Shown here: positions 45,256 through 63,736 of the stretch, in pieces
How positions within the stretch are numbered: the first letter of the stretch is position 1
Layout of the letters: each line of letters begins with the position of its first letter
Assembly: GCA_035548815.1 (NCBI GenBank)
Contig: DASZSF010000005.1
Coordinates: 115,741 to 179,740, forward strand
DNA: 64,000 nt
Direction: 5' to 3'
Source of the DNA: Minisyncoccota bacterium
GTDB taxonomy: Bacteria > Patescibacteriota > Minisyncoccia > Phycocordibacterales > SBAW01
Position numbers and translations under genes: made by a program
The notes under the pieces: model-generated
What the model was told of the DNA's origin: nothing
Databases searched by the model: none
Seen by the model: only the letters and a program-made list of their open reading frames with translations

Positions 45256-45580
45256 TCCTCCTATCCCACCTCAAGACCCTTAAGAGCCTCCTTGTTGGCA
45301 AACCCCCTTCGCAAATCCCTGGGGTCTGCTAGGGTGCAAAGCGATAGCATAAAGTGCTATCATGTTCGTGCACAACTAAATATAAGCCGACCTAACCCCT
45401 CAGGCCTCAAAACCTCAGGATATGGTCGCAAATCCCGCTAGAGATCAAAGGACTCCTGGTCAGAGTCACTCTAGCGGGTCGTATCGGGAAACCGGTACGG
45501 GCTCGGCCGAAAGGTCGGGTCGCGATGGCCAGGAGCCTTTTGATTAGGGCTCACTCCGTCGATAAAACCCGCTAGAATTC

Positions 45581-52128: not shown

Positions 52129-53043
52129 ATGAACAAAACTCTTCTGTGGTACAAACAGCGTGCACGGAGAAATTTTGGCGTGGTAAGCACTACCATGGGC
52201 ATGCTCTTGTTGCTTGTTTCACCGCTTGCTGCATTTGCACAAACCTCACGCACCTCTGCAGGAGATGCAGCACCAGCGTTCGTCGCGGCACAAGGTGCTG
52301 ATGCATCACTCAACTGGGCAGGGTATGTTGCGAACAAAAAGGGGAGTACATATACATCGGTGTCTGCGACATGGACAGTGCCAAAAATTTCAACCGCAAG
52401 CACAACAGGCAACTCCGCTGATGCAACATGGGTCGGCATCGGCGGAGTTTCGTCAGACGATTTGATTCAGGCGGGGACGCAAGCACTCGTAAACAACAAT
52501 CGCGTCACGTATCAAGCGTGGTACGAATTGTTGCCCGACTATCAGACACCAATCGCACTTGCTGTGCATGCAGGCGACTCGGTGAGTGTCTCCATACACG
52601 AAGTATCTGCCAACAATTGGGAAGTGATTTTTATAAACAACACTACGGGTCAAAAATATCAAAAAACATTTTCATACGAATCAGCACGATCGTCTGCTGA
52701 GTGGATACAAGAGATGCCGGTCGGAGGCAGCTCACGTCATCTCAGCTACATTCCCTTGGATGACTTTGGCAGCGTCACATTTGTCGGAGCGAACGCGGTC
52801 GTGGACGGAGTTGCTCATTTGCTTGGCGACCTCGAGGCCACTCCGCTCACAATGCTCGGCACTCGTTCGCAAACGCTCGCAGTGCCATCGAAATTGCATG
52901 CCGACGGATCGAGCTTCTCTGTTGCTCGCACACAAGGAAATAATTTTTCATCAACTGTGCGTACACGTAGTGCGCATCCCATCGATCGAGATGTATATCA
53001 AACCAGCAACGGTACCACTGTCATCAAAGTGATGGTATGGTAA
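52129..53043 (+). CDS. secreted peptidase G1 (eqolisin / scytalidoglutamic peptidase-like)
   Basis: signal peptide; SLNWAGYV, WVGIGG, LIQAGT, YQAWYELLPD, AEWIQEMP in family order. Confidence 0.6.
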   Translation: MNKTLLWYKQRARRNFGVVSTTMGMLLLLVSPLAAFAQTSRTSAGDAAPAFVAAQGADASLNWAGYVANKKGSTYTSVSATWTVPKISTASTTGNSADATWVGIGGVSSDDLIQAGTQALVNNNRVTYQAWYELLPDYQTPIALAVHAGDSVSVSIHEVSANNWEVIFINNTTGQKYQKTFSYESARSSAEWIQEMPVGGSSRHLSYIPLDDFGSVTFVGANAVVDGVAHLLGDLEATPLTMLGTRSQTLAVPSKLHADGSSFSVARTQGNNFSSTVRTRSAHPIDRDVYQTSNGTTVIKVMVW

Positions 53044-53533: not shown

Positions 53534-53566
53534 ATTCTCTTTAATATTCTATCTCGAATTGCCGAG

Positions 53567-53607
53567 ATATATTGCAAAATAAAACTTTTTCATAAAAATC
53601 TCGGCAA
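53567..53607. repeat. 10-bp inverted repeat TTGCCGAGAT / ATCTCGGCAA with 21-bp AT-rich spacer upstream of giant gene
   Basis: seen directly; possible operator or hairpin. Confidence 0.3.
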
Positions 53608-53767
53608 CGATAGCGAATAGCGCGTATATATATATTTATCACAGTCCAGGTTCAGAATTCCGACGGGTTTTGTATTCACAGAAGCTATTCATGAAATCTT
53701 AAAAATTTTATCCACATGAAAAGTAGAAAATAGTGTTAAACCATAGGGTTATTTTGTCGTATACTGT

Positions 53768-56700
53768 TTGCAACAGGGCAATCGCGATCGCGATATGCCT
53801 TTTTCTTTTTTACAACCAACAAAAAACACTGTCCCGCATGCGGGACGTTCTTTGTTGTACAAGGGAATAATTCTTGTACTCATGTGCGCACTCACATGTT
53901 CGTCTTTTTCAATTCCTGCACGTGCAGCGGGCGCTCCTCCGACGATTATTTCGTACCAAGGCCGTCTCACCGATGGAAGTGGAAATTTACTTGGAGATTT
54001 GGGCACAACGTACTATCTGAAATTTTCTATTTGGGATAGTCCGACCGTGGGTGCGGGTAATCGTGTGTGGCCAACGACAACAAGCGTTGCAACGACGAGC
54101 GTTACGGTGACGCAAGGCCTCTTCACCGTTAACATTGGCGACACTGCGAACGGATATCCAACTGCGCTTAACTTGAACGTCGCAAACAATACGCAGCTCT
54201 ATTTGCAGGTGGAAGTTTCTGCGGATAACAATTCGTCTGAAACGTTGTCTCCACGCCAGCAACTCACATCGTCCGTATTCTCGCTCCTTTCGAGTGCAGT
54301 TGTCGGTACAACGACACCGTCGCTCTTTGGAACCACAACCCCGATAGGTTCATCGTTCATCACAGCGCAAGCAACAAGCGCGACGTCCATCCCACTGACA
54401 CTTGCAGGCACTTCAGGACAGACAGCGAATCTTTTCCAAGTTTTGAATAATTCTCTTTCGAACTTGTTTTCGATATCCAGCAACGGTACTGTCACCTTTG
54501 CGACGCTGACGTCAGGTTTGCATGCAGCATCACCAAGCGGTGCTGTGTACTCTGCGGCGACATCATCGCTTTCACTGTCGGGACCGTTCTCCGGGTTTGC
54601 ATCGCTCGGCGCACTTGTCGGCGGTTCGAACTCAACGATAACGTGGACCGGCCTTGCAACGACATCACAACCATCATCAAGCAACCTGCTTGTTTCAAAC
54701 GGAGGAGCGGGTGTGTACGGCGTCGCAACATCGACGCTCACTGCGTCGTCGCCACTCACTGGATCATTCACTGTGCTGGGAAGCGGCGGAAGTTTGGGAT
54801 GCCAAACTGCAAACGGTTCGCAAGCAGGATGTCTTTCGTCGGCAGACTGGACGACATTCAACAGCAAATCGAGTTTTGCATACCCGTTCAACATTGCCGG
54901 AAATGCAACCTCAACACTGACACAGTTCAACGGGGGACTTACTGCGTACGCGTCAACAACCATCGGCAACGGCGGCCAAGGCAGTGGCTTGACCATCAAC
55001 GGAGGCGCGACGACAACAGGAAATGCATACGTGAACGGGAACCTTACGGTGGGCACTACGGGAGCACTCGTTGCAAGTGCAGGTAATATAGTTCATCAAG
55101 TTGGTAACTTCCAATTCTACAATTCTACCATTGTCGTTCCAAGCGGTGCCTCTATTATTCCAAGCAACAACATCAGAACGTTTACGTTCTATGGGAACCC
55201 AACCTATTCAACCGGCAACGGTCTGGATTTTACGGCAGGGGACCCGGGTAATGCAGTGACTGTAAGCGCTTCGACAAACTATGGTTCGCCCGATATGAAT
55301 GTATCCATCGCGTTCCTCCCTAAAGGTGCGGGCAACATCGGTATTGCTACCTCCTCGCCCTTCGCCAAACTTTCGGTCGCGGGTTCAGCATACATCGGAG
55401 GCAATCTGACCGCGACGGGCACTCTCGCGGTTGCTGGCATCAGCACGTTTTCGAGCAATATCGGCGTGGGCACGACCTCACCGTGGAAGATGTTGTCAGT
55501 GGGCACGGGCACCACCGGCACTTTCGTCATTGCAACCTCAACCGCAGGCTGCGCACAGTTCAGTGCTTTTGGTGAACTCTACTCGACGGGTTCAAACTGT
55601 GGTGGAGGATCGCTTACAGGTACCACCGGTCAGATTCCGTGGTTCAGCGGCACGAACACCGCAGTGGGCACATCATCGTTGTTCCTCAACTCGTCTACAG
55701 GGAACTTCGGCATTGGAACCACATCGCCGCTTGCGAAACTTGATGTTTTTGGCAACGTAACCTTGTCTGGCTCAAGTCGCTATTTGAACTTCGGCGCGAC
55801 CTCGACCGCCGGTATTGGTTCAACTGGCTATGGTCTTCGTGATAATGCCGGTGTCCTTGAGTTCAAGAACTCCGGTGGTTCATGGCAAGGTGTGTCATCG
55901 GTTGCAACAAGCGGACCGGCCTTCTCCGTGGATAAAAATGGCACTGACCAAACAATTTCAACAGCCACATATACACCTCTCACTTGGTCTCACGAAATCT
56001 TCGACACCAACAACAACTTCGACACGGGGACCGGCCGATTCACTCCAACAGTGCCGGGCAAGTATCTCATTAAGCTCAATGTGTACTGTGGCGCAGTTTC
56101 TAGCTGCTACGCAGGTATCGCAAAAAACGGTTCTGCCCTGGCAAACATAGTTTCGCAGACAGGCTCCCAAGGGAACGTCACCATTGCGACGGCGGTCGCT
56201 ATCGTCGACATGAATGGTACGACGGACTACATCGTAGGCGACGGCTATTCGGATGTAAGCACAACTATTGTTGGTACGGTTATCAATACCAACTTCTCAG
56301 GTGCTCTCATTGCCCCCGTCAGCGCGGGTACGGTCAACGGCACAGGTTCAAATGGTCAGATCACCTTCTGGAACAGTGCAAACTCAGCAACAGGCGACGC
56401 CGACTTCGTCTGGGACAGCACCAACAGCCGCCTTGGCATCGGCACCTCATCGCCATGGGCAAAGCTTTCGGTTGTTACGGATGCAACTACTGGTCCAGGC
56501 AGTGTCGTCGATGCAAGTTCAATCACGGACGGAGTGGGTCTGCGCCTTGAGTTCAATAGCTCAACGATGACCACCAACGGCCGTGTCTTCAGCATTGTCG
56601 ACAAAGCTTTCAACAGCACCTTCTTCGAAGTCAACGAAAACGGTCAGACCGGCATCCGCACCTTCGGCAACCTCGGTAGCAACTTCTCATCACTCACGGT

Positions 56701-58828
56701 TGCAACGGGCTTCGACAGCTTCACGGGCATCTCAGTGCGCGCCAACAGCGGTTCGCAGACTGGCAACTTGCAAGAATGGCAGGATTCGTCAGGCAATCCG
56801 CTGGTGGTTGTGGACCCGACGGGAAAGGTTGGCGTCGGTACCTCAACTCCTCACTGGAACCTCCAAGTCGCCGGCACGCGTCCGTCATTCGCGCTCTCAG
56901 ACACATCGGCAGGCACAAACTTGAAACACTGGGTCTTCTCATCGATGGGCGGCAACCTCTACATCGGTACCTCAACCGATGCGTTCGGCACGTCGAGCCC
57001 TGCAGTCTTCTCAATCTCAAGCACGGGTTCAACGACTGCAGCAAACGGCATCAACATCAACAACGGCTGCTTTGCTATCAAAGGTGCGTGTATCGGCTAC
57101 ACGGTGAAGCTTGCAGCTGTATATGCGACTTCGACTGCGGGTACGAATGCAACAGTCCAGTTCACCGGCGCACCAGGCAGTGCTCCGAGCTTTGCTACAG
57201 GGGCGCCGGGCACGCTCACCCTTCCATCCAACACCTCATATATTGTTGTTGAAACCCGCGGTGGTGGTGGCGGTGGTGGTAACAACGGTAGCACGAGCGC
57301 AATCAAAGCAGCCGGCGGCGGCGGCCAAGGTGGATACTCGCGCGCACTTATCAAAGCGCCTACCGGCACCTACAAGTACACCGTTGGCTTGGGCGGCGCT
57401 GGCGGTACAGGTACCGGAGCAGTAACAGGCACCGCAGGCGGCGCAAGCTGCTTTGGCACTAACGCAACCGCATGTACGTCGTCTTCAGTGCAAGCAGCGG
57501 GCGGTTCAGGAGGCGTTGGAACTAACTCTGCAGGAGCAATTTCAGGGGGCGCTGGCGGTTCGTCGGCAGCGGTAGGTACTGTCGGTGATTACGAAGAAGA
57601 CGGTGCTCCCGGAGGTGACAGCAGTGCAGCAACAAACGGTATCCAAAGCGGTGCCGGAGGCGGCCAAGGCGGAGGTCTCGGACGCACTACTTCAGGCAAT
57701 GGTAACCCTGGTATAAACGGCGGCGGCGGCTCAGGCGGCTTGCTTACAGCAGCAGCTGCTACACAAGAAACCGGCGGCAAGGGCGGCGACGGCGTCCTTA
57801 TCATATCCGTCTACGCAACGTCGTCTGCAAACGCAACAGGCAACGACTATGCTGAAATGTTCCCAGTTTCCGACTCGTCAATTTCTTCAGGCGACATCGT
57901 CGCAGTCGACAACACGACTCCAGTTTCGATGCGCATGGCACGAGGAGGCGAGCATGCGTCGCTTGCAGGCATCGTCTCAACTGCACCAGGCCAGATCCTT
58001 GGCGATGCGTCAGCACCAGGTCAAAAACCGATCGCGTTCTCTGGTCGCGTTCCGACCAAGGTCAACCTGGAGAACGGTCCTATTCATGTCGGTGACCGCA
58101 TCGCGCCGTCATTCGTTGCTGGGGTTGGTAAGAAGGCGGGTCCTCTGGATGACTCGGTCGGTATCGCGCTTGAAGCATACGATGGCACATCTGATTCCAA
58201 TCAGATATTGGTATTCCTCGATCTTCACCAAGGTATTGATATAAGCTCGCTTGCAGGACAGCTCTTCTCGTCCGAAGTGCTTCAGAATATATCAAGCTCT
58301 CTCCCTATTGATTCGACATCAACTTCTGCATCGATGCTCATGGGTACGACTAGCCCTGAAACAGGCACGGACTTTGTTGGCGCCATCTTTGGCGCCATCA
58401 TCGCTCGCATGCAAAACTTCGGGATCTTTATTACAAAAACGGCAACCCACATCACGACCCTTATGGTGAGTCACTTTACGGTCGGCTCGTCTGATGCGCC
58501 TGAAGGGATCACCATTTACGACAGACAAGGCCGCGCAGGGTGTCTTATTGCTGATGATGTAACAACAGGCAAGATGCAATTGCTTGAAGGCATGTGCGGT
58601 ACACAAACCGCGAGCGTAGGAAATGCTACATTGCAAGATGGCGGAGGAAATGACAACGATACTGGCACCAGCACGCCTGCTGTGGAGCCTATTGGCCAAA
58701 ACAGCAGCGACACCGCTACGAGCACGTCTTCTGATATAGGCGCTGGAAGCGACGAGCCTGCGACACCAGACACTCCAAGCGACACGGGCAACTCTGACAT
58801 GGCATCATCAACTGACACCGGAGTCTAG
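53768..58828 (+). CDS. giant (1686 aa) secreted surface protein with Thr/Ser/Gly-rich beta-repeats and phage tail-fibre-like glycine-rich domain
   Basis: signal peptide; YIVVETRGGGGGGGNNG...AAGGGGQGG...GLGGAGGTG glycine-rich segment; conserved C-terminal globular domain. Confidence 0.75.
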   Translation: MQQGNRDRDMPFSFLQPTKNTVPHAGRSLLYKGIILVLMCALTCSSFSIPARAAGAPPTIISYQGRLTDGSGNLLGDLGTTYYLKFSIWDSPTVGAGNRVWPTTTSVATTSVTVTQGLFTVNIGDTANGYPTALNLNVANNTQLYLQVEVSADNNSSETLSPRQQLTSSVFSLLSSAVVGTTTPSLFGTTTPIGSSFITAQATSATSIPLTLAGTSGQTANLFQVLNNSLSNLFSISSNGTVTFATLTSGLHAASPSGAVYSAATSSLSLSGPFSGFASLGALVGGSNSTITWTGLATTSQPSSSNLLVSNGGAGVYGVATSTLTASSPLTGSFTVLGSGGSLGCQTANGSQAGCLSSADWTTFNSKSSFAYPFNIAGNATSTLTQFNGGLTAYASTTIGNGGQGSGLTINGGATTTGNAYVNGNLTVGTTGALVASAGNIVHQVGNFQFYNSTIVVPSGASIIPSNNIRTFTFYGNPTYSTGNGLDFTAGDPGNAVTVSASTNYGSPDMNVSIAFLPKGAGNIGIATSSPFAKLSVAGSAYIGGNLTATGTLAVAGISTFSSNIGVGTTSPWKMLSVGTGTTGTFVIATSTAGCAQFSAFGELYSTGSNCGGGSLTGTTGQIPWFSGTNTAVGTSSLFLNSSTGNFGIGTTSPLAKLDVFGNVTLSGSSRYLNFGATSTAGIGSTGYGLRDNAGVLEFKNSGGSWQGVSSVATSGPAFSVDKNGTDQTISTATYTPLTWSHEIFDTNNNFDTGTGRFTPTVPGKYLIKLNVYCGAVSSCYAGIAKNGSALANIVSQTGSQGNVTIATAVAIVDMNGTTDYIVGDGYSDVSTTIVGTVINTNFSGALIAPVSAGTVNGTGSNGQITFWNSANSATGDADFVWDSTNSRLGIGTSSPWAKLSVVTDATTGPGSVVDASSITDGVGLRLEFNSSTMTTNGRVFSIVDKAFNSTFFEVNENGQTGIRTFGNLGSNFSSLTVATGFDSFTGISVRANSGSQTGNLQEWQDSSGNPLVVVDPTGKVGVGTSTPHWNLQVAGTRPSFALSDTSAGTNLKHWVFSSMGGNLYIGTSTDAFGTSSPAVFSISSTGSTTAANGININNGCFAIKGACIGYTVKLAAVYATSTAGTNATVQFTGAPGSAPSFATGAPGTLTLPSNTSYIVVETRGGGGGGGNNGSTSAIKAAGGGGQGGYSRALIKAPTGTYKYTVGLGGAGGTGTGAVTGTAGGASCFGTNATACTSSSVQAAGGSGGVGTNSAGAISGGAGGSSAAVGTVGDYEEDGAPGGDSSAATNGIQSGAGGGQGGGLGRTTSGNGNPGINGGGGSGGLLTAAAATQETGGKGGDGVLIISVYATSSANATGNDYAEMFPVSDSSISSGDIVAVDNTTPVSMRMARGGEHASLAGIVSTAPGQILGDASAPGQKPIAFSGRVPTKVNLENGPIHVGDRIAPSFVAGVGKKAGPLDDSVGIALEAYDGTSDSNQILVFLDLHQGIDISSLAGQLFSSEVLQNISSSLPIDSTSTSASMLMGTTSPETGTDFVGAIFGAIIARMQNFGIFITKTATHITTLMVSHFTVGSSDAPEGITIYDRQGRAGCLIADDVTTGKMQLLEGMCGTQTASVGNATLQDGGGNDNDTGTSTPAVEPIGQNSSDTATSTSSDIGAGSDEPATPDTPSDTGNSDMASSTDTGV

Positions 58829-59843: not shown

Positions 59844-60890
59844 ATGTCGAGGTTGTTCTTTGCTCTATATATAGTGTTTGCGCTTGTTGCTACGTACACC
59901 GCGAGCGTCCCAGCATATGCGGATGTAACTTCAACGCACTATAGAATTGAAAATCCAACAATTAGTCCCGGCGGCACAGGTTCGTCAGCAAGCTACAAAC
60001 TTTCAGGCACGGCAGGCGAGACTGCGCACAATGGTGGGTCAGCTTCAAGTTATCGATTACAGCTCGGGTTCTTCTCGTTCCCGGTCGTAACAGCGCCGGT
60101 ACTATCGGTGCAGGTCGGAAATGCGAACGGCCGGGCGGATCTTTCGTGGAGCGCCGCCATTCCATATTTGGGATACACGGTTTCGGCGTATAAAGTCGGC
60201 TACGCAACCGCGTCGGGAGGACCCTACACATATATATCGGTAGGCAATGTGCTTGCGTACGATGTGGGGTCGCTGGTGAACGGTACGCCATACTACTTTA
60301 TTGTTACTGCGCTCGACAATGCGAGCATCACAATAGCGACCTCAAGCGAGGTGACCGCGACACCAGTGGCGCCGTCCCTTACATTTGTTATAGACTCAGG
60401 CACTCAAGCATTGCCAAACTTAACGCCAGGCACGCTCACGTCGACCTCGAGTATTTTGAGTATCAAAACGAATAACCCGACAGGCTTTGTCACGACCCTT
60501 GCACGTTCAAACGTAAATAACACGCTGTTATTAAACACGGATTCGAGCGTTGCGATACCCGACAAGACTGACTGGACTGCACCACCAGCCACGACGACAA
60601 ACGGCTCCGCATCGGCGTCAACAACCCAGCCTCTGACACTTCAATTCCGCCTATGGAAGGCTATGACCGATTCGGCAAACTATTCAACAAACTGGTGGGG
60701 AGCTGACGACACAACATCGGGTGCATTATTTGCGGGCATACCATCAACAACGCAAGCGATTTCGAATCGTTCAGTGTCAGCAGTGTCGACGACTACCACT
60801 CGTGTGTTGTATGACCTGAACGTTCCAAACAGCCAAAAGAACGGCACCTATAGCGGCGATGTTGTATATACCGTTACCGTCAATCCATGA
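59844..60890 (+). CDS. secreted protein: FN3-like domain + C-terminal WxL-like domain (paralogue 1)
   Basis: signal peptide; C-terminal TNWWGADD...LFAGI...GTYSGDVVYTVTVNP shared with next gene. Confidence 0.45.
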   Translation: MSRLFFALYIVFALVATYTASVPAYADVTSTHYRIENPTISPGGTGSSASYKLSGTAGETAHNGGSASSYRLQLGFFSFPVVTAPVLSVQVGNANGRADLSWSAAIPYLGYTVSAYKVGYATASGGPYTYISVGNVLAYDVGSLVNGTPYYFIVTALDNASITIATSSEVTATPVAPSLTFVIDSGTQALPNLTPGTLTSTSSILSIKTNNPTGFVTTLARSNVNNTLLLNTDSSVAIPDKTDWTAPPATTTNGSASASTTQPLTLQFRLWKAMTDSANYSTNWWGADDTTSGALFAGIPSTTQAISNRSVSAVSTTTTRVLYDLNVPNSQKNGTYSGDVVYTVTVNP

Positions 60891-60966
60891 TGACATATGG
60901 GGATAAGCAGAATGTGTGAAATAGCTTGTGATATATACTTAATAGGCGATTGAACGTAATGAAATT

Positions 60967-61671
60967 TTGATGAACCCCTTTTCGATTTCTTTTTCATATG
61001 TGCATCGAATTGATAGGACAGACTTTGCCAAGTCGTTTATAGCAACAGCGCTTCTTTTTGGCGTTTTCGTATTAGCCATTCAGGCGTACGCATCGACGGT
61101 AACCCTTTCAGTTGTAGTTCAAACCTCCCTTACCTTTACAAGTACGACCGACAACTTCACCACCATAACGCCAGGGACTCCCGTATACGCCACGACGACT
61201 CTTTCAGTGCTCACGAACGATTCAAGCGGTTATAACGTTACGCTTTCGGGCGACAATAAGAGCACGAGCAATAACAACTTGCAGCTATCGGGCAACACAT
61301 CGGTGCAGATCACCGACCAGACCGAATGGGTACCGAACGCTGCCACATCAAGTCCGGGCAATGCCGTCGCTGTTGCTAGCTTCACGAACTCGGGCAATGT
61401 ACTTGCATTCCGAGTCATGAGCGCTTCGTCGACAAATGGTGCGGGCTTCCTTTCGACGTCATGGTGGGGAACGGCCGACTACTCTTCCTCAAACTCGCTG
61501 TGGGCAGGTATTTCAAGCTCAACTGTAGCTCGTCGTATTGGCAATGCGGGCTCAGGCACGTATAGTTCATCTGCGCATTTAAACAGCGTTCAATACTACT
61601 TGAATGTCTCAAGCAGCCAACAGACCGGTACCTACAACGCACCTATTACCTATACCGCCACAGGCAATTAA
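60967..61671 (+). CDS. secreted WxL-like domain protein (paralogue 2)
   Basis: STSWWGTAD...LWAGI...GTYNAPITYTATGN; signal peptide. Confidence 0.45.
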   Translation: MMNPFSISFSYVHRIDRTDFAKSFIATALLFGVFVLAIQAYASTVTLSVVVQTSLTFTSTTDNFTTITPGTPVYATTTLSVLTNDSSGYNVTLSGDNKSTSNNNLQLSGNTSVQITDQTEWVPNAATSSPGNAVAVASFTNSGNVLAFRVMSASSTNGAGFLSTSWWGTADYSSSNSLWAGISSSTVARRIGNAGSGTYSSSAHLNSVQYYLNVSSSQQTGTYNAPITYTATGN

Positions 61672-61675
61672 CGCT

Positions 61676-62587
61676 ATGGTACTGCGGCGACTGGCATATA
61701 TAACCGCTACAGGCGTCGCCCTCCTTCTATATGGATTTTCATTTGTGCCTGCGCTTGCAGCAACGGGCCTTTCTATACAACCGGTCAAGATAGATCAAAC
61801 ACTTAACCCAGGCGACGTGCTCGATGGCAGCATTTTGCTTTCCAATGCAAGCGATGGTCCGGTAAATGTTGAACTGAGCCTACAGGATTTCGTGCCCACA
61901 GCGGGAGCTGATGGTATTCAGTTCATCGGCCGCACGGAGGGAGTGACGAGTGTCATCGATTGGATCCATGTCGAGACCAAACCAACGTTCTCTCTGGATG
62001 TCGGCGAACAGATTAGCATCCCGTACACCATTACAGCGCCTCAAAATGCTGAACCAGGTAGCCACTTGGGAGTTATTTTGTTCAAAGCTGCACCAAAAAA
62101 CGCTGTGGCAGGCAGTCTTAAGGTTGGTACGCAGGTTGGAACGCTTGTAATGATCGCAATTCCGGGCAACCACCTTGAAAAAGGAAATATACTCGACTTT
62201 ACAGTGCCTCTATTTTCTCAAAAAGGGCCGATCCCATTTGATATAAAATTCCAAAACACCGGCACCGTCCATTTCGAGCCGAAAGGATCGATTGTCATCC
62301 GCAATATGTTTGGGCAGAAGGCTGGCGAAGTGCCCATTACTGGTCAAGTTGCACTTCCAACGAGCGTAAAAGAACTTAAATTCGCATGGAATCCGGGAGC
62401 GTTTGCGCTTGGGCGTTACACTGCGAGCGCAACTATCTACGACGGCGAAGGAGATGCGCTTACGTCCCGTGAAGTGAGTTTCTACGTAGTTCCTGTGTGG
62501 TATATCATCGGATTCCTCGTAGTAATTACATTGATCTACCTCCTCTTGCGCTACCTCAAACGACACGTACGTCTGACCTTGCAATAG
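61676..62587 (+). CDS. DUF916/DUF3324-like cell-surface protein with C-terminal TM anchor (CscA-like)
   Basis: GLSIQPVKIDQTLNPGDVLDGSILLSNASDGPVNVELSLQDF; C-terminal VWYIIGFLVVITLIYLLLRYLKRH. Confidence 0.55.
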   Translation: MVLRRLAYITATGVALLLYGFSFVPALAATGLSIQPVKIDQTLNPGDVLDGSILLSNASDGPVNVELSLQDFVPTAGADGIQFIGRTEGVTSVIDWIHVETKPTFSLDVGEQISIPYTITAPQNAEPGSHLGVILFKAAPKNAVAGSLKVGTQVGTLVMIAIPGNHLEKGNILDFTVPLFSQKGPIPFDIKFQNTGTVHFEPKGSIVIRNMFGQKAGEVPITGQVALPTSVKELKFAWNPGAFALGRYTASATIYDGEGDALTSREVSFYVVPVWYIIGFLVVITLIYLLLRYLKRHVRLTLQ

Positions 62588-62593
62588 ACTGCC

Positions 62594-63181
62594 ATGAATG
62601 GCCCACGCCTTGGCACAGCAATTCTTATTGGTCTGGCATTATGCCTCATGGCATATGGATTTCGCATCATTACAGCGACGGGCACTGTTGATGTTCGGCA
62701 TCTATTGTCGGCCACCGATATGCTGGTGGTATATGTATCTAACCCAAGCTGTGAAGCAAATGCAGGAACCGTGTGCCAGTCAGATCAAAACATGTGTGGG
62801 CAGATCAATTCAGGAATCTTTTTGTGCGACGGGACATGCTCGGCAGTGACTCCGCCTGATTCGCAGTGTCCGGTTGAACCTCCACCAAACACTGGAGGTG
62901 GCGGAGGCGGGGGTGGCGGAGGCCCGATAGTTGCCGTCACACCTCCTACGCCTACTCCTATGACGCCCGAAGATGAAACAGCGCTTCGGTGCACTGAGCG
63001 AAGAAAAATCGGCGACTTTAACTGCAGCGGCAGGGTAGACATACAGGACTTCAGCATCCTTGCATATTGGTTTAAACGACCGCTTACAGACCTGGCATAT
63101 GCGACGGGGGTGGACTTAAATCATGACCAAAAAGCGACTCTCGCGGATTTCAGCATCCTCGCATATTATTGGGGGAAATAG
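62594..63181 (+). CDS. secreted Cys-rich protein with poly-Gly linker and two dockerin-type Ca-binding repeats
   Basis: DFNCSGRVDIQDFSILAYWF and DLNHDQKATLADFSILAYYW match type-I dockerin repeat pattern. Confidence 0.6.
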   Translation: MNGPRLGTAILIGLALCLMAYGFRIITATGTVDVRHLLSATDMLVVYVSNPSCEANAGTVCQSDQNMCGQINSGIFLCDGTCSAVTPPDSQCPVEPPPNTGGGGGGGGGGPIVAVTPPTPTPMTPEDETALRCTERRKIGDFNCSGRVDIQDFSILAYWFKRPLTDLAYATGVDLNHDQKATLADFSILAYYWGK

Positions 63182-63184
63182 AGT

Positions 63185-63736
63185 ATGAAGATATACAGCA
63201 TTTTTGCCACCGTTGCGCTATTCATTCCCGCCGTTGCGTCTGCGGCGACGCTTTCGTTTGATCCGCCTCATGCGCATGTGAAAGCAGGGGACGCTATTTC
63301 GTTTAGCGTTATGTTGAGCGCAGACGACAGTATTAATGCTGTAGGAACTGCGGTGCAGGTCCCTGCGGGACTCTCATTTATTTCCTCTTCCAAGGGAAAT
63401 GTATTTACGCAATGGGTAGAAACTCCCAGTTTTGATGCGAAGACGAGCACTGTTGAATTTTCGGGGATAATGACAGGAGGTTGGACAGGCAAAGACCAAG
63501 TGCTCGCAACTATTACCCTGAAGGCACAGCAGGATGGGGACTATACGCTTGTGTATGACCCTTCGCAGACAGAATTGTATAAGAACGATGGAAAGGCGAC
63601 TCCGGATACGGTGACGTTCGGCACTATAGCGACACCCCTTGCGGGCCGTGTACTTCTTGGCTTGGTCGCTGCGTTCGCCGCCGTACTCTTGTTCTTCTTA
63701 CTGCTGCGACGAAAAGTAATGGTACGATTTGTCTAA
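63185..63736 (+). CDS. cohesin-like domain protein with C-terminal TM anchor
   Basis: ATLSFDPPHAHVKAGDAISFSVMLSADDSINAVGTAVQVPAGLSFIS beta-sandwich pattern; C-terminal TM + RRK. Confidence 0.55.
   Translation: MKIYSIFATVALFIPAVASAATLSFDPPHAHVKAGDAISFSVMLSADDSINAVGTAVQVPAGLSFISSSKGNVFTQWVETPSFDAKTSTVEFSGIMTGGWTGKDQVLATITLKAQQDGDYTLVYDPSQTELYKNDGKATPDTVTFGTIATPLAGRVLLGLVAAFAAVLLFFLLLRRKVMVRFV

Follow-up and report, generated by a model that had tools for sequence, protein, structure and literature searches.

What is encoded by the longest gene in a 64,000-nucleotide stretch of a Minisyncoccota genome (assembly GCA_035548815.1, contig DASZSF010000005.1; the whole stretch is called the window below), and what might a protein of this size do for its cell? 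The listing of open reading frames (ORFs) gives a maximal ORF at 53768-58828 on the plus strand, 1686 amino acids long when read from a TTG codon. A preliminary description, made from the letters alone, had called it the largest in the window, and so it is, the runner-up having 1036 amino acids; residue numbers follow the 1686-amino-acid numbering of the maximal ORF throughout. Our answer, which we consider reasonably probable, is that this giant gene encodes a Sec-exported, homotrimeric, self-cleaving surface fibre of Candidatus Paceibacterota, put together from modules of phage tail fibres and used for attachment to a host or a surface.

The features that carry this reading lie towards the C-terminal end of the protein:

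57845-58237, plus strand: autochaperone beta-domain of phi29-gp12 type (MEROPS G2-like), residues 1360-1490, from profile and motif comparison
57842-57856, plus strand: predicted autocleavage site N1359/D1360-Y-A-E1363, from the alignment to gp12
58238-58828, plus strand: C-terminal extension, residues 1491-1686, up to the stop codon, conserved in a subset of relatives
57191-57817, plus strand: TNF-like/glycine-rich domain with GGGGxGG motifs, residues 1142-1350, from Pfam and the match to Pam3 gp24

The first of these, which begins DYAEMFPVSD...GDIVAV..., lies almost exactly where the preliminary description had placed a conserved globular domain (about 57850-58250), and it is kept in about 36 relatives (35 of 120 by another count). 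In an alignment of 31 copies, D1360, a glycine, the GR of ALAGRVP, three further glycines and an alanine are invariant, while A1362, E1363 and other positions are at least 90% conserved. The motif D-x-[AG]-E is present in 323 of 342 domain copies (94%). When the 31-copy profile was compared with all PDB sequences, gp12 of phage phi29 came first (6qz9, E 2.8e-5; 3gqh; 3suc); these three structures, MEROPS family G2 and Pfam Peptidase_G2 (PF11962) served for the comparison. The alignment pairs D1360 with gp12 D692, at which the crystallised C-terminal fragment begins (3gqh; DFAEYFES...), and E1363 with gp12 E695, a position taken by Gln in 3suc, the uncleaved chain. In the virion, the mature form of gp12 stops at residue 691 (PMC6542822). 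Residues 1360-1490 can be counted as a member of the fold of the released gp12 C-terminal fragment, and in BFVD they match best to viral proteins, some called “preneck appendage protein” and others tail-fibre-like.

Does Pfam agree? The model in question, Peptidase_G2 (“IMC autoproteolytic cleavage domain”), gives 18.2 and 19.7 bits for a gathering score of 25, and the match is confined to profile positions 40-102 of 228. Across the 31 family members, 11 reach E < 0.1 (best 5.7e-5) and all 31 stay below the gathering score. Despite these sub-threshold scores, we are confident that residues 1360-1490 are homologous to the C-terminal domain of phi29 gp12. The earlier suggestion of an intramolecular chaperone or autoprocessing module can be retained in the form of this homology, which includes the residues of the cleavage site, with the amendments that the module is of the phi29/G2 type, internal to the chain and below the Pfam threshold.

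Upstream of the cleavage site lies the glycine-rich domain, which had been likened to those of tail fibres. Two comparisons bear this out. Pfam Gly_rich_2 (PF21722) matches residues 1149-1348 with 31.7 bits (gathering score 24.3) over profile positions 7-225 of 226. Residues 1142-1350 match the cyanophage Pam3 tail fibre gp24 (7yfw/7ypx; chain residues 82-276 of 280) with an E-value of 1.3e-5, a figure that includes a large glycine compositional bias term in HMMER, which tells against it, and that is therefore to be read together with the Pfam result. The motifs RGGGGGGGNNG, AAGGGGQGG, AGGGQGGG and NGGGGSGG all occur in the domain. In gp24, the strands of the TNF-like domain run on into six glycine-rich loops with GGGGxGG motifs, and this TNF-like and glycine-rich part is the distal, receptor-recognising tip, which resembles the polyglycine tip of phage S16 gp38 (PMC9608196). 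We predict from the sequence that residues 1142-1350 form a receptor-binding distal tip. The likeness to gp24, a TNF-like plus glycine-rich domain with GGGGxGG, covers nearly all of the distal part of that protein, and it is through gp24 that the window tip can be likened to the polyglycine adhesin tip of Salmonella phage S16 gp38. The settings differ, in that gp24 has 280 amino acids and a separate chaperone, gp25, whereas the window protein carries its tip on a stalk some 1100 amino acids long and has it fused to an intramolecular chaperone-like domain. In gp12, the pre-neck appendage (tailspike) of a Bacillus phage, the part upstream of the autochaperone is a beta-helix with teichoic-acid-degrading activity, where the window protein has its glycine-rich tip. 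Neither PF21722 nor family G2 is mentioned in the literature that we searched.

How would these parts work together? We propose that the precursor would be exported through an N-terminal signal peptide. The gp12-type domain would fold first and, acting as an intramolecular chaperone, would align three chains in register. After trimerisation, each chain would cut itself between N1359 and D1360 by way of the conserved D-x-A-E motif. Cleavage would remove the last 327 residues, so that the C-terminal extension would leave with the cleaved fragment, and the glycine-rich gp24-like domain would become the free distal tip. The tip, perhaps with an internal C1q-like head, would bind a ligand on a host cell or a substrate, while a conserved N-terminal beta-sandwich would tether the fibre to its producer cell. 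Binding specificity would come from the variable centre and the tip, both encoded in a conserved locus.

Several observations weigh against a domain that cuts itself away, and all of them would suit the same exported fibre with a gp12-like domain that stays in place, uncleaved, as a trimerisation knob or a clamp resembling decoration proteins, the D-x-A-E motif then being structural. Whereas the autochaperone of gp12 is C-terminal, the domain here is followed by 196 residues and stays under the gathering score of Pfam. The stretch past the last domain copy has a median length of 239 residues in 188 relatives, only 3 of which have fewer than 60. Most of the best-scoring family members contain two or three tandem copies, which is odd for a disposable terminal chaperone, in a sample that favours multi-copy proteins, whose scores are summed over the copies. 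The phi29 fragment reportedly needs ATP (adenosine triphosphate) for its release, a finding ascribed to Xiang et al. in 2009. Since ATP is absent extracellularly, a release of that ATP-dependent kind cannot apply outside the cell, and it is unlikely in the Sec-exported cellular setting of the window protein.

Against the uncleaved knob it can be said that the best structural and sequence match of the domain is precisely the gp12 autochaperone, in register with its cleavage site, and that the D and E of the motif are nearly invariant across the 342 copies. Moreover, sister proteins carry Peptidase_S74, a known self-cleaving chaperone, in the same architectural slot, and cleavage would leave the glycine-rich tip at the end of the chain as in Pam3 gp24, which ends a few residues past its tip. 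We regard the uncleaved knob as unlikely, if deserving of serious attention, and retain self-cleavage as part of the preferred reading.

The exchange of folding modules is visible among the relatives. Of 54 that share the N-terminal domain, 20 have a gp12-type domain, 13 have Peptidase_S74 and 21 have neither (some of these are partial); the split of 20 to 13 fits interchangeable C-terminal folding modules. Overall, Peptidase_S74 is found in 24 of the 120 relatives listed, and 13 of those 24 share the N-terminal domain. The bacterial “tail fiber domain-containing proteins” with Peptidase_S74 (endosialidase or T5 pb1-type) likewise consist of a long fibre and a C-terminal folding module. Peptidase_S74 is a helical/tentacle Ser-Lys protease, however, with a fold unrelated to the G2-like domain, and the window protein has no match to it (PF13884) even at E <= 10; the preliminary description had named it among the families to search for.

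The C-terminal extension consists, in order, of a Ser/Thr linker, an amphipathic helix (FVGAIFGAIIARMQNFGIFI), a small beta module and an acidic Ser/Thr/Asp tail. The beta module has the conserved pattern VGS..P.GIT(I/L)YD...C...G.C and an AlphaFold2 confidence of 75-86, the confidence in the rest of the extension being low. The extension has no Pfam match at E <= 10, and the search of PDB sequences with it gave nothing meaningful.

We now turn to the parts of the protein that precede the tip:

53795-53926, plus strand: start codon and Sec-type signal peptide MPFSF...GIILVLMCALTCSSFSIPARA, from the N-terminal alignment, with n, h and c regions read from the sequence
53936-54307, plus strand: N-terminal beta-sandwich, strongly conserved; in relatives no other domain comes between it and the signal peptide
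54308-55918, plus strand: first stalk, residues 181-717, beta-repeats rich in Ser/Thr/Gly/Ala/Asn, with G(I/V)(G/A)T(S/T)(S/T)P...KL.V units
55919-56320, plus strand: C1q/TNF-like jelly-roll, residues about 718-851, from Pfam C1q
56321-57190, plus strand: second stalk, residues 852-1141, with two more GxGTxxP units, from motif reading and the alignment of relatives

Where does the protein begin? The candidate starts are TTG 53768, ATG 53795 and ATG 53882. The true start is probably ATG 53795 (residue 10), which would give a protein of 1677 amino acids and a gene at 53795-58828. This codon is favoured because two relatives (P0003 and P0063) share this start and its MPF(S/L/F)F motif, and because the signal peptides of relatives need residues upstream of 53882 to be complete. 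The ORF at 53768-58828 exists as first described, and the gene within it is likely shorter by these few codons. Every relative has a signal peptide of 30-55 amino acids (basic n-region, hydrophobic core, AxA) before a conserved xPPxIxSYQGRL motif; the signal peptide noted at the outset is of Sec type and common to the family. In the window protein, its cleavage is predicted after A-R-A, between A53 and A54. The NCBI model of this gene (P0001; 1648 amino acids, 100% identical, “hypothetical protein”, from a Candidatus Paceibacterota metagenome-assembled genome (MAG) with a 291-kb contig) starts at M39 (ATG 53882), which leaves the signal peptide with no n-region and with only half of its hydrophobic core. 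Judging from the sequence, this public model probably begins 29 codons late. A perfect 16-bp palindrome, GTCCCGCATGCGGGAC (window 53830-53847), with T-rich flanks on both strands, lies within the signal-peptide coding region, between ATG 53795 and the NCBI start at 53882.

When 119 relatives are mapped on the query, three conserved blocks appear, separated by variable sequence: residues 40-200 (about 54 relatives), residues 280-380 and residues 1350-1490 (about 36 relatives). The N-terminal beta-sandwich, which has no Pfam match in a scan of sub-segments at E <= 10, is proposed as the cell-proximal end, since phage fibres keep their attachment end and vary the distal end, and the pattern of conservation here is the same. 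The whole protein is rich in Thr, Ser, Gly and Ala, with a glycine maximum of 31 per 100 amino acids at residues 1201-1300; both this composition and the glycine runs quoted in the preliminary description were found again in the sequence. That description had also allowed for a protein made only of low-complexity repeats; the Pfam domains and the blocks conserved across relatives speak otherwise. The Big and collar-type families that it mentioned are absent from the Pfam scan of five sub-segments at E <= 10.

The two stalks have no Pfam match at E <= 10 and returned nothing meaningful from the PDB sequence search. Their unit, G(I/V)(G/A)T(S/T)(S/T)P..(K/N)L.V, occurs in five copies in the protein, those of the first stalk at residues 525, 566 and 648. 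Residues 205-400 of the first stalk recur in 39 relatives, often in several copies each, and a unit of about 90 amino acids in the second stalk (residues 1005-1095) is a mobile repeat module, of which relatives carry as many as 9 copies. The DNA of the giant gene contains neither direct nor tandem repeats, and the stalk repeats are therefore old, diverged protein modules. For the same reason slippage or tandem-repeat expansion was rejected. A diversity-generating retroelement target was also rejected, as no direct DNA repeat of at least 35 nt in the 64-kb window involves the gene.

Between the stalks, Pfam C1q (PF00386) matches residues 718-815 with 28.2 bits (gathering score 23.7), and the region matches C1q-related factor, C1QL3 and collagen X NC1 in PDB with E-values from 6e-6 to 1e-4. 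To our knowledge, the C1q/TNF jelly-roll forms trimers in all characterised members. In metazoan proteins such as C1QL3, collagen X NC1 and adiponectin, the C1q/TNF head stands at the end of a collagen stalk, while here it stands in the middle of the fibre. One relative (P0035) has four copies of the C1q-like domain.

Is this a phage protein or a cellular one? The closest characterised relatives of both the tip and the autochaperone are phage fibres, so a tail fibre of a phage or prophage, or of a phage-tail-like particle, has to be weighed in place of a cellular surface protein. A scan of IMG/VR adds distant relatives of the C-terminal domain on viral contigs (53 viral loci with domain copies at 27-38% identity). 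In one viral locus (L008), an NDYAEFFP...ALAGRVPV domain ends a 499-amino-acid tail-fibre-like ORF adjoining baseplate-like genes. The window locus, by contrast, has a cellular setting. Its ten neighbours include a cation efflux protein, a Peptidase_A4 protein (eqolisin-type), DUF192, a Beta-lactamase2-family protein and several secreted proteins, among them weak cohesin- and dockerin-like ones; none of the ten matches a phage structural family, and a prophage context was rejected on this ground. The N-terminal Sec signal peptide is conserved in all relatives, the whole protein has no match in PHROGs or NCBIfam, and its surroundings on the chromosome are shared by three MAG lineages. In the GTDB species set, every close relative of the C-terminal domain belongs to Patescibacteria (Paceibacterota, Kaiserbacteria, “Saccharibacteria”, Veblenbacteria) bar one contig labelled Rhodoplanes sp. 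(L059; DASUPI010000357.1, 3.2 kb), in which the domain is 66% identical; this label is probably a binning error, suspected because the contig is tiny. We consider a phage fibre highly improbable. The signal peptide and the cellular synteny point instead to an exported cellular precursor, as the preferred reading has it.

The syntenic loci also show how the gene varies. One of them (L003) has the same order as the window, with Peptidase_A4, the giant gene, Beta-lactamase2 on the opposite strand and five small genes, and its flanking proteins are 46-84% identical to those of the window. Its giant gene (2191 amino acids) matches ours only in the first 380 residues (69%), in one 74-amino-acid unit and in the C-terminal domain. 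In the other two loci (L001 and L002), the giant gene (1235 amino acids) has the N-terminal domain (53%) and the glycine-rich and C-terminal domains (60%), and the centre is missing. Among these syntenic genes of 1235, 1677 and 2191 amino acids, the N- and C-terminal parts are kept and the centre is swapped.

How the protein would stay on the cell is a further question. It has neither an LPXTG motif nor a C-terminal transmembrane helix that could anchor it, a point against a cell-attached fibre, and its cleavable AxA signal peptide would be equally at home in a protein that is secreted and released, e.g., a soluble lectin-like or toxin-delivery fibre; such a role would be close to the effector delivery that the preliminary description had listed as one option. 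On the other hand, no toxin or enzymatic domain was found in Pfam, NCBIfam or PADLOC-independent searches, and the N-terminal domain is very strongly conserved although the centres behind it are unrelated, as would be expected if it docked onto a conserved partner on the producer cell. A released protein seems to us very unlikely, and we continue with the cell-attached adhesin as the candidate function. The name “trimeric autotransporter adhesin”, given by JGI (the Joint Genome Institute) to two relatives (P0004 and P0092), was rejected for the family: Pfam and NCBIfam give no YadA-type head or stalk domains, and the C-terminus is an acidic low-complexity tail and not an outer-membrane anchor.

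How widespread is the family? The profile of the C-terminal domain finds 28,825 representatives of 50%-identity clusters at E <= 1e-3, and 24,345 at E <= 1e-10; the best 150 representatives are mostly proteins of roughly 1000-6800 amino acids. Since family members score below the Pfam gathering score, they have probably largely been left as “hypothetical”, and a dedicated domain model would probably annotate thousands of giant proteins of the candidate phyla radiation. Some of them have unusual layouts. In P0121, P0126, P0137, P0171 and P0189, two or three tandem gp12-like copies stand 150-300 residues apart, each with its own D-x-A-E; P0189 (6814 amino acids) shares the N-terminal domain of the window protein. 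Another protein (P0067; 2717 amino acids) has two gp12-like domains (residues 1596-1741 and 2226-2376) and Peptidase_S74 in one chain.

On how ultrasmall Patescibacteria recognise and hold their hosts, the published work that we found concerns type IV pili. The giant gene is a candidate for a second attachment system, one with a tip homologous to a phage receptor-binding tip and with a centre that has been exchanged among related genomes without any change of locus. If our reading is true, self-cleaving folding extends from the assembly of phages in the cytoplasm to exported proteins of bacteria. Xiang et al. are said to have suggested such a folding mechanism for bacterial adhesins in 2009. 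The parts are known from phages; in the literature that we searched, there is no description of their combination, of the extracellular setting, of the C-terminal extension or of how large the unannotated family is in Patescibacteria. It is possible, if doubtful at present, that Patescibacteria have made wide use of receptor-binding parts acquired from phages, namely a polyglycine/TNF-like tip and a self-cleaving chaperone of gp12 or S74 type, that they joined these parts to a Sec signal and to a conserved domain for docking on the cell, and that the resulting swappable fibres determine the host cell of the episymbiont. The gp12-like domain would then work outside the cell without ATP, and the conserved C-terminal extension, or the tandem duplication in relatives, would newly adapt the protein to folding and release there.

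The DNA upstream of the giant gene has several features of its own:

53559-53607, plus strand: inverted repeat TTGCCGAGAT-N29-ATCTCGGCAA, with perfect 10-bp arms at 53559-53568 and 53598-53607
53708-53794, plus strand: putative promoter and short leader, from conserved islands in three syntenic loci
53708-53716, plus strand: conserved TTATCCACA, an island common to three syntenic loci
about 53756-53762, plus strand: -10-like GTATACT, an island common to three syntenic loci
53773-53780, plus strand: conserved ACAGGGCA, an island common to three syntenic loci
53781-53794, plus strand: small hairpin abutting the start codon, directly after ACAGGGCA

The inverted repeat had been noticed in the preliminary description; it exists, with a left boundary that needed to be moved by 8 nt (the arm begins at 53559). 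It lies 26 nt past the DUF192 stop codon and about 190 nt 5' of the ATG. As RNA it has a folding energy of -16.7 kcal/mol (z = -3.6 versus shuffles). It is not unique, since the window has about 10 separate loci with 10-bp inverted repeats (19 overlapping arm pairs, versus about 3 in block shuffles). Its core, CCGAGAT..ATCTCGG, recurs upstream of the orthologous gene in L001 and L002 at a similar distance (-238/-213), where the gene upstream of the core differs from that in the window; it was not found upstream of the orthologous gene in L003. The inverted repeat may be a terminator-like hairpin without a T-tail that ends the upstream transcript, or it may be an operator.

Three islands are kept in otherwise diverged intergenic DNA (window 53708-53794, L001 4384-4484, L002 4092-4192, L003 5911-6000). 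Their conservation across the syntenic loci suggests that the giant gene has a putative promoter of its own and a very short structured leader. A sigma-70 promoter scan gave no match upstream of the giant gene, and the Rfam scan of the window gave none near it. The island TTATCCACA is identical to the E. coli DnaA-box consensus, and L003 carries ATATCCACA at its position. In L002, the hairpin has a GC-rich 11-bp stem and a T-run, 8 nt before the ATG.

On either side of the giant gene there are genes that recur with it. Just upstream, at 52129-53043 on the plus strand, is the gene for the secreted Peptidase_A4 (eqolisin, glutamic peptidase family G1), which is also upstream in L003 (4952-5812) with 54% identity. 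Downstream lies a five-gene cluster (window 59844-63736, plus strand; L003 13596-17524) that encodes small secreted or membrane-anchored proteins of 348, 234, 327, 195 and 183 amino acids, 46-84% identical to their L003 counterparts. The first two, with about 37% identity to each other, are paralogues, the 327- and 183-amino-acid proteins end in a hydrophobic helix, and the last two have weak, sub-threshold Pfam matches, dockerin-like and cohesin-like. A WxL/DUF916-like identity of these genes, suspected from C-terminal motifs, was dropped, as Pfam gave no support for it. The five proteins may form a surface complex that works with the fibre. Elsewhere in the window, at 45389-45521 on the plus strand, there is a full-length match to the Rfam LOOT RNA (RF03000; 73.3 bits, gathering score 46.4), which overlaps one of the 10-bp inverted repeats (45434-45478).

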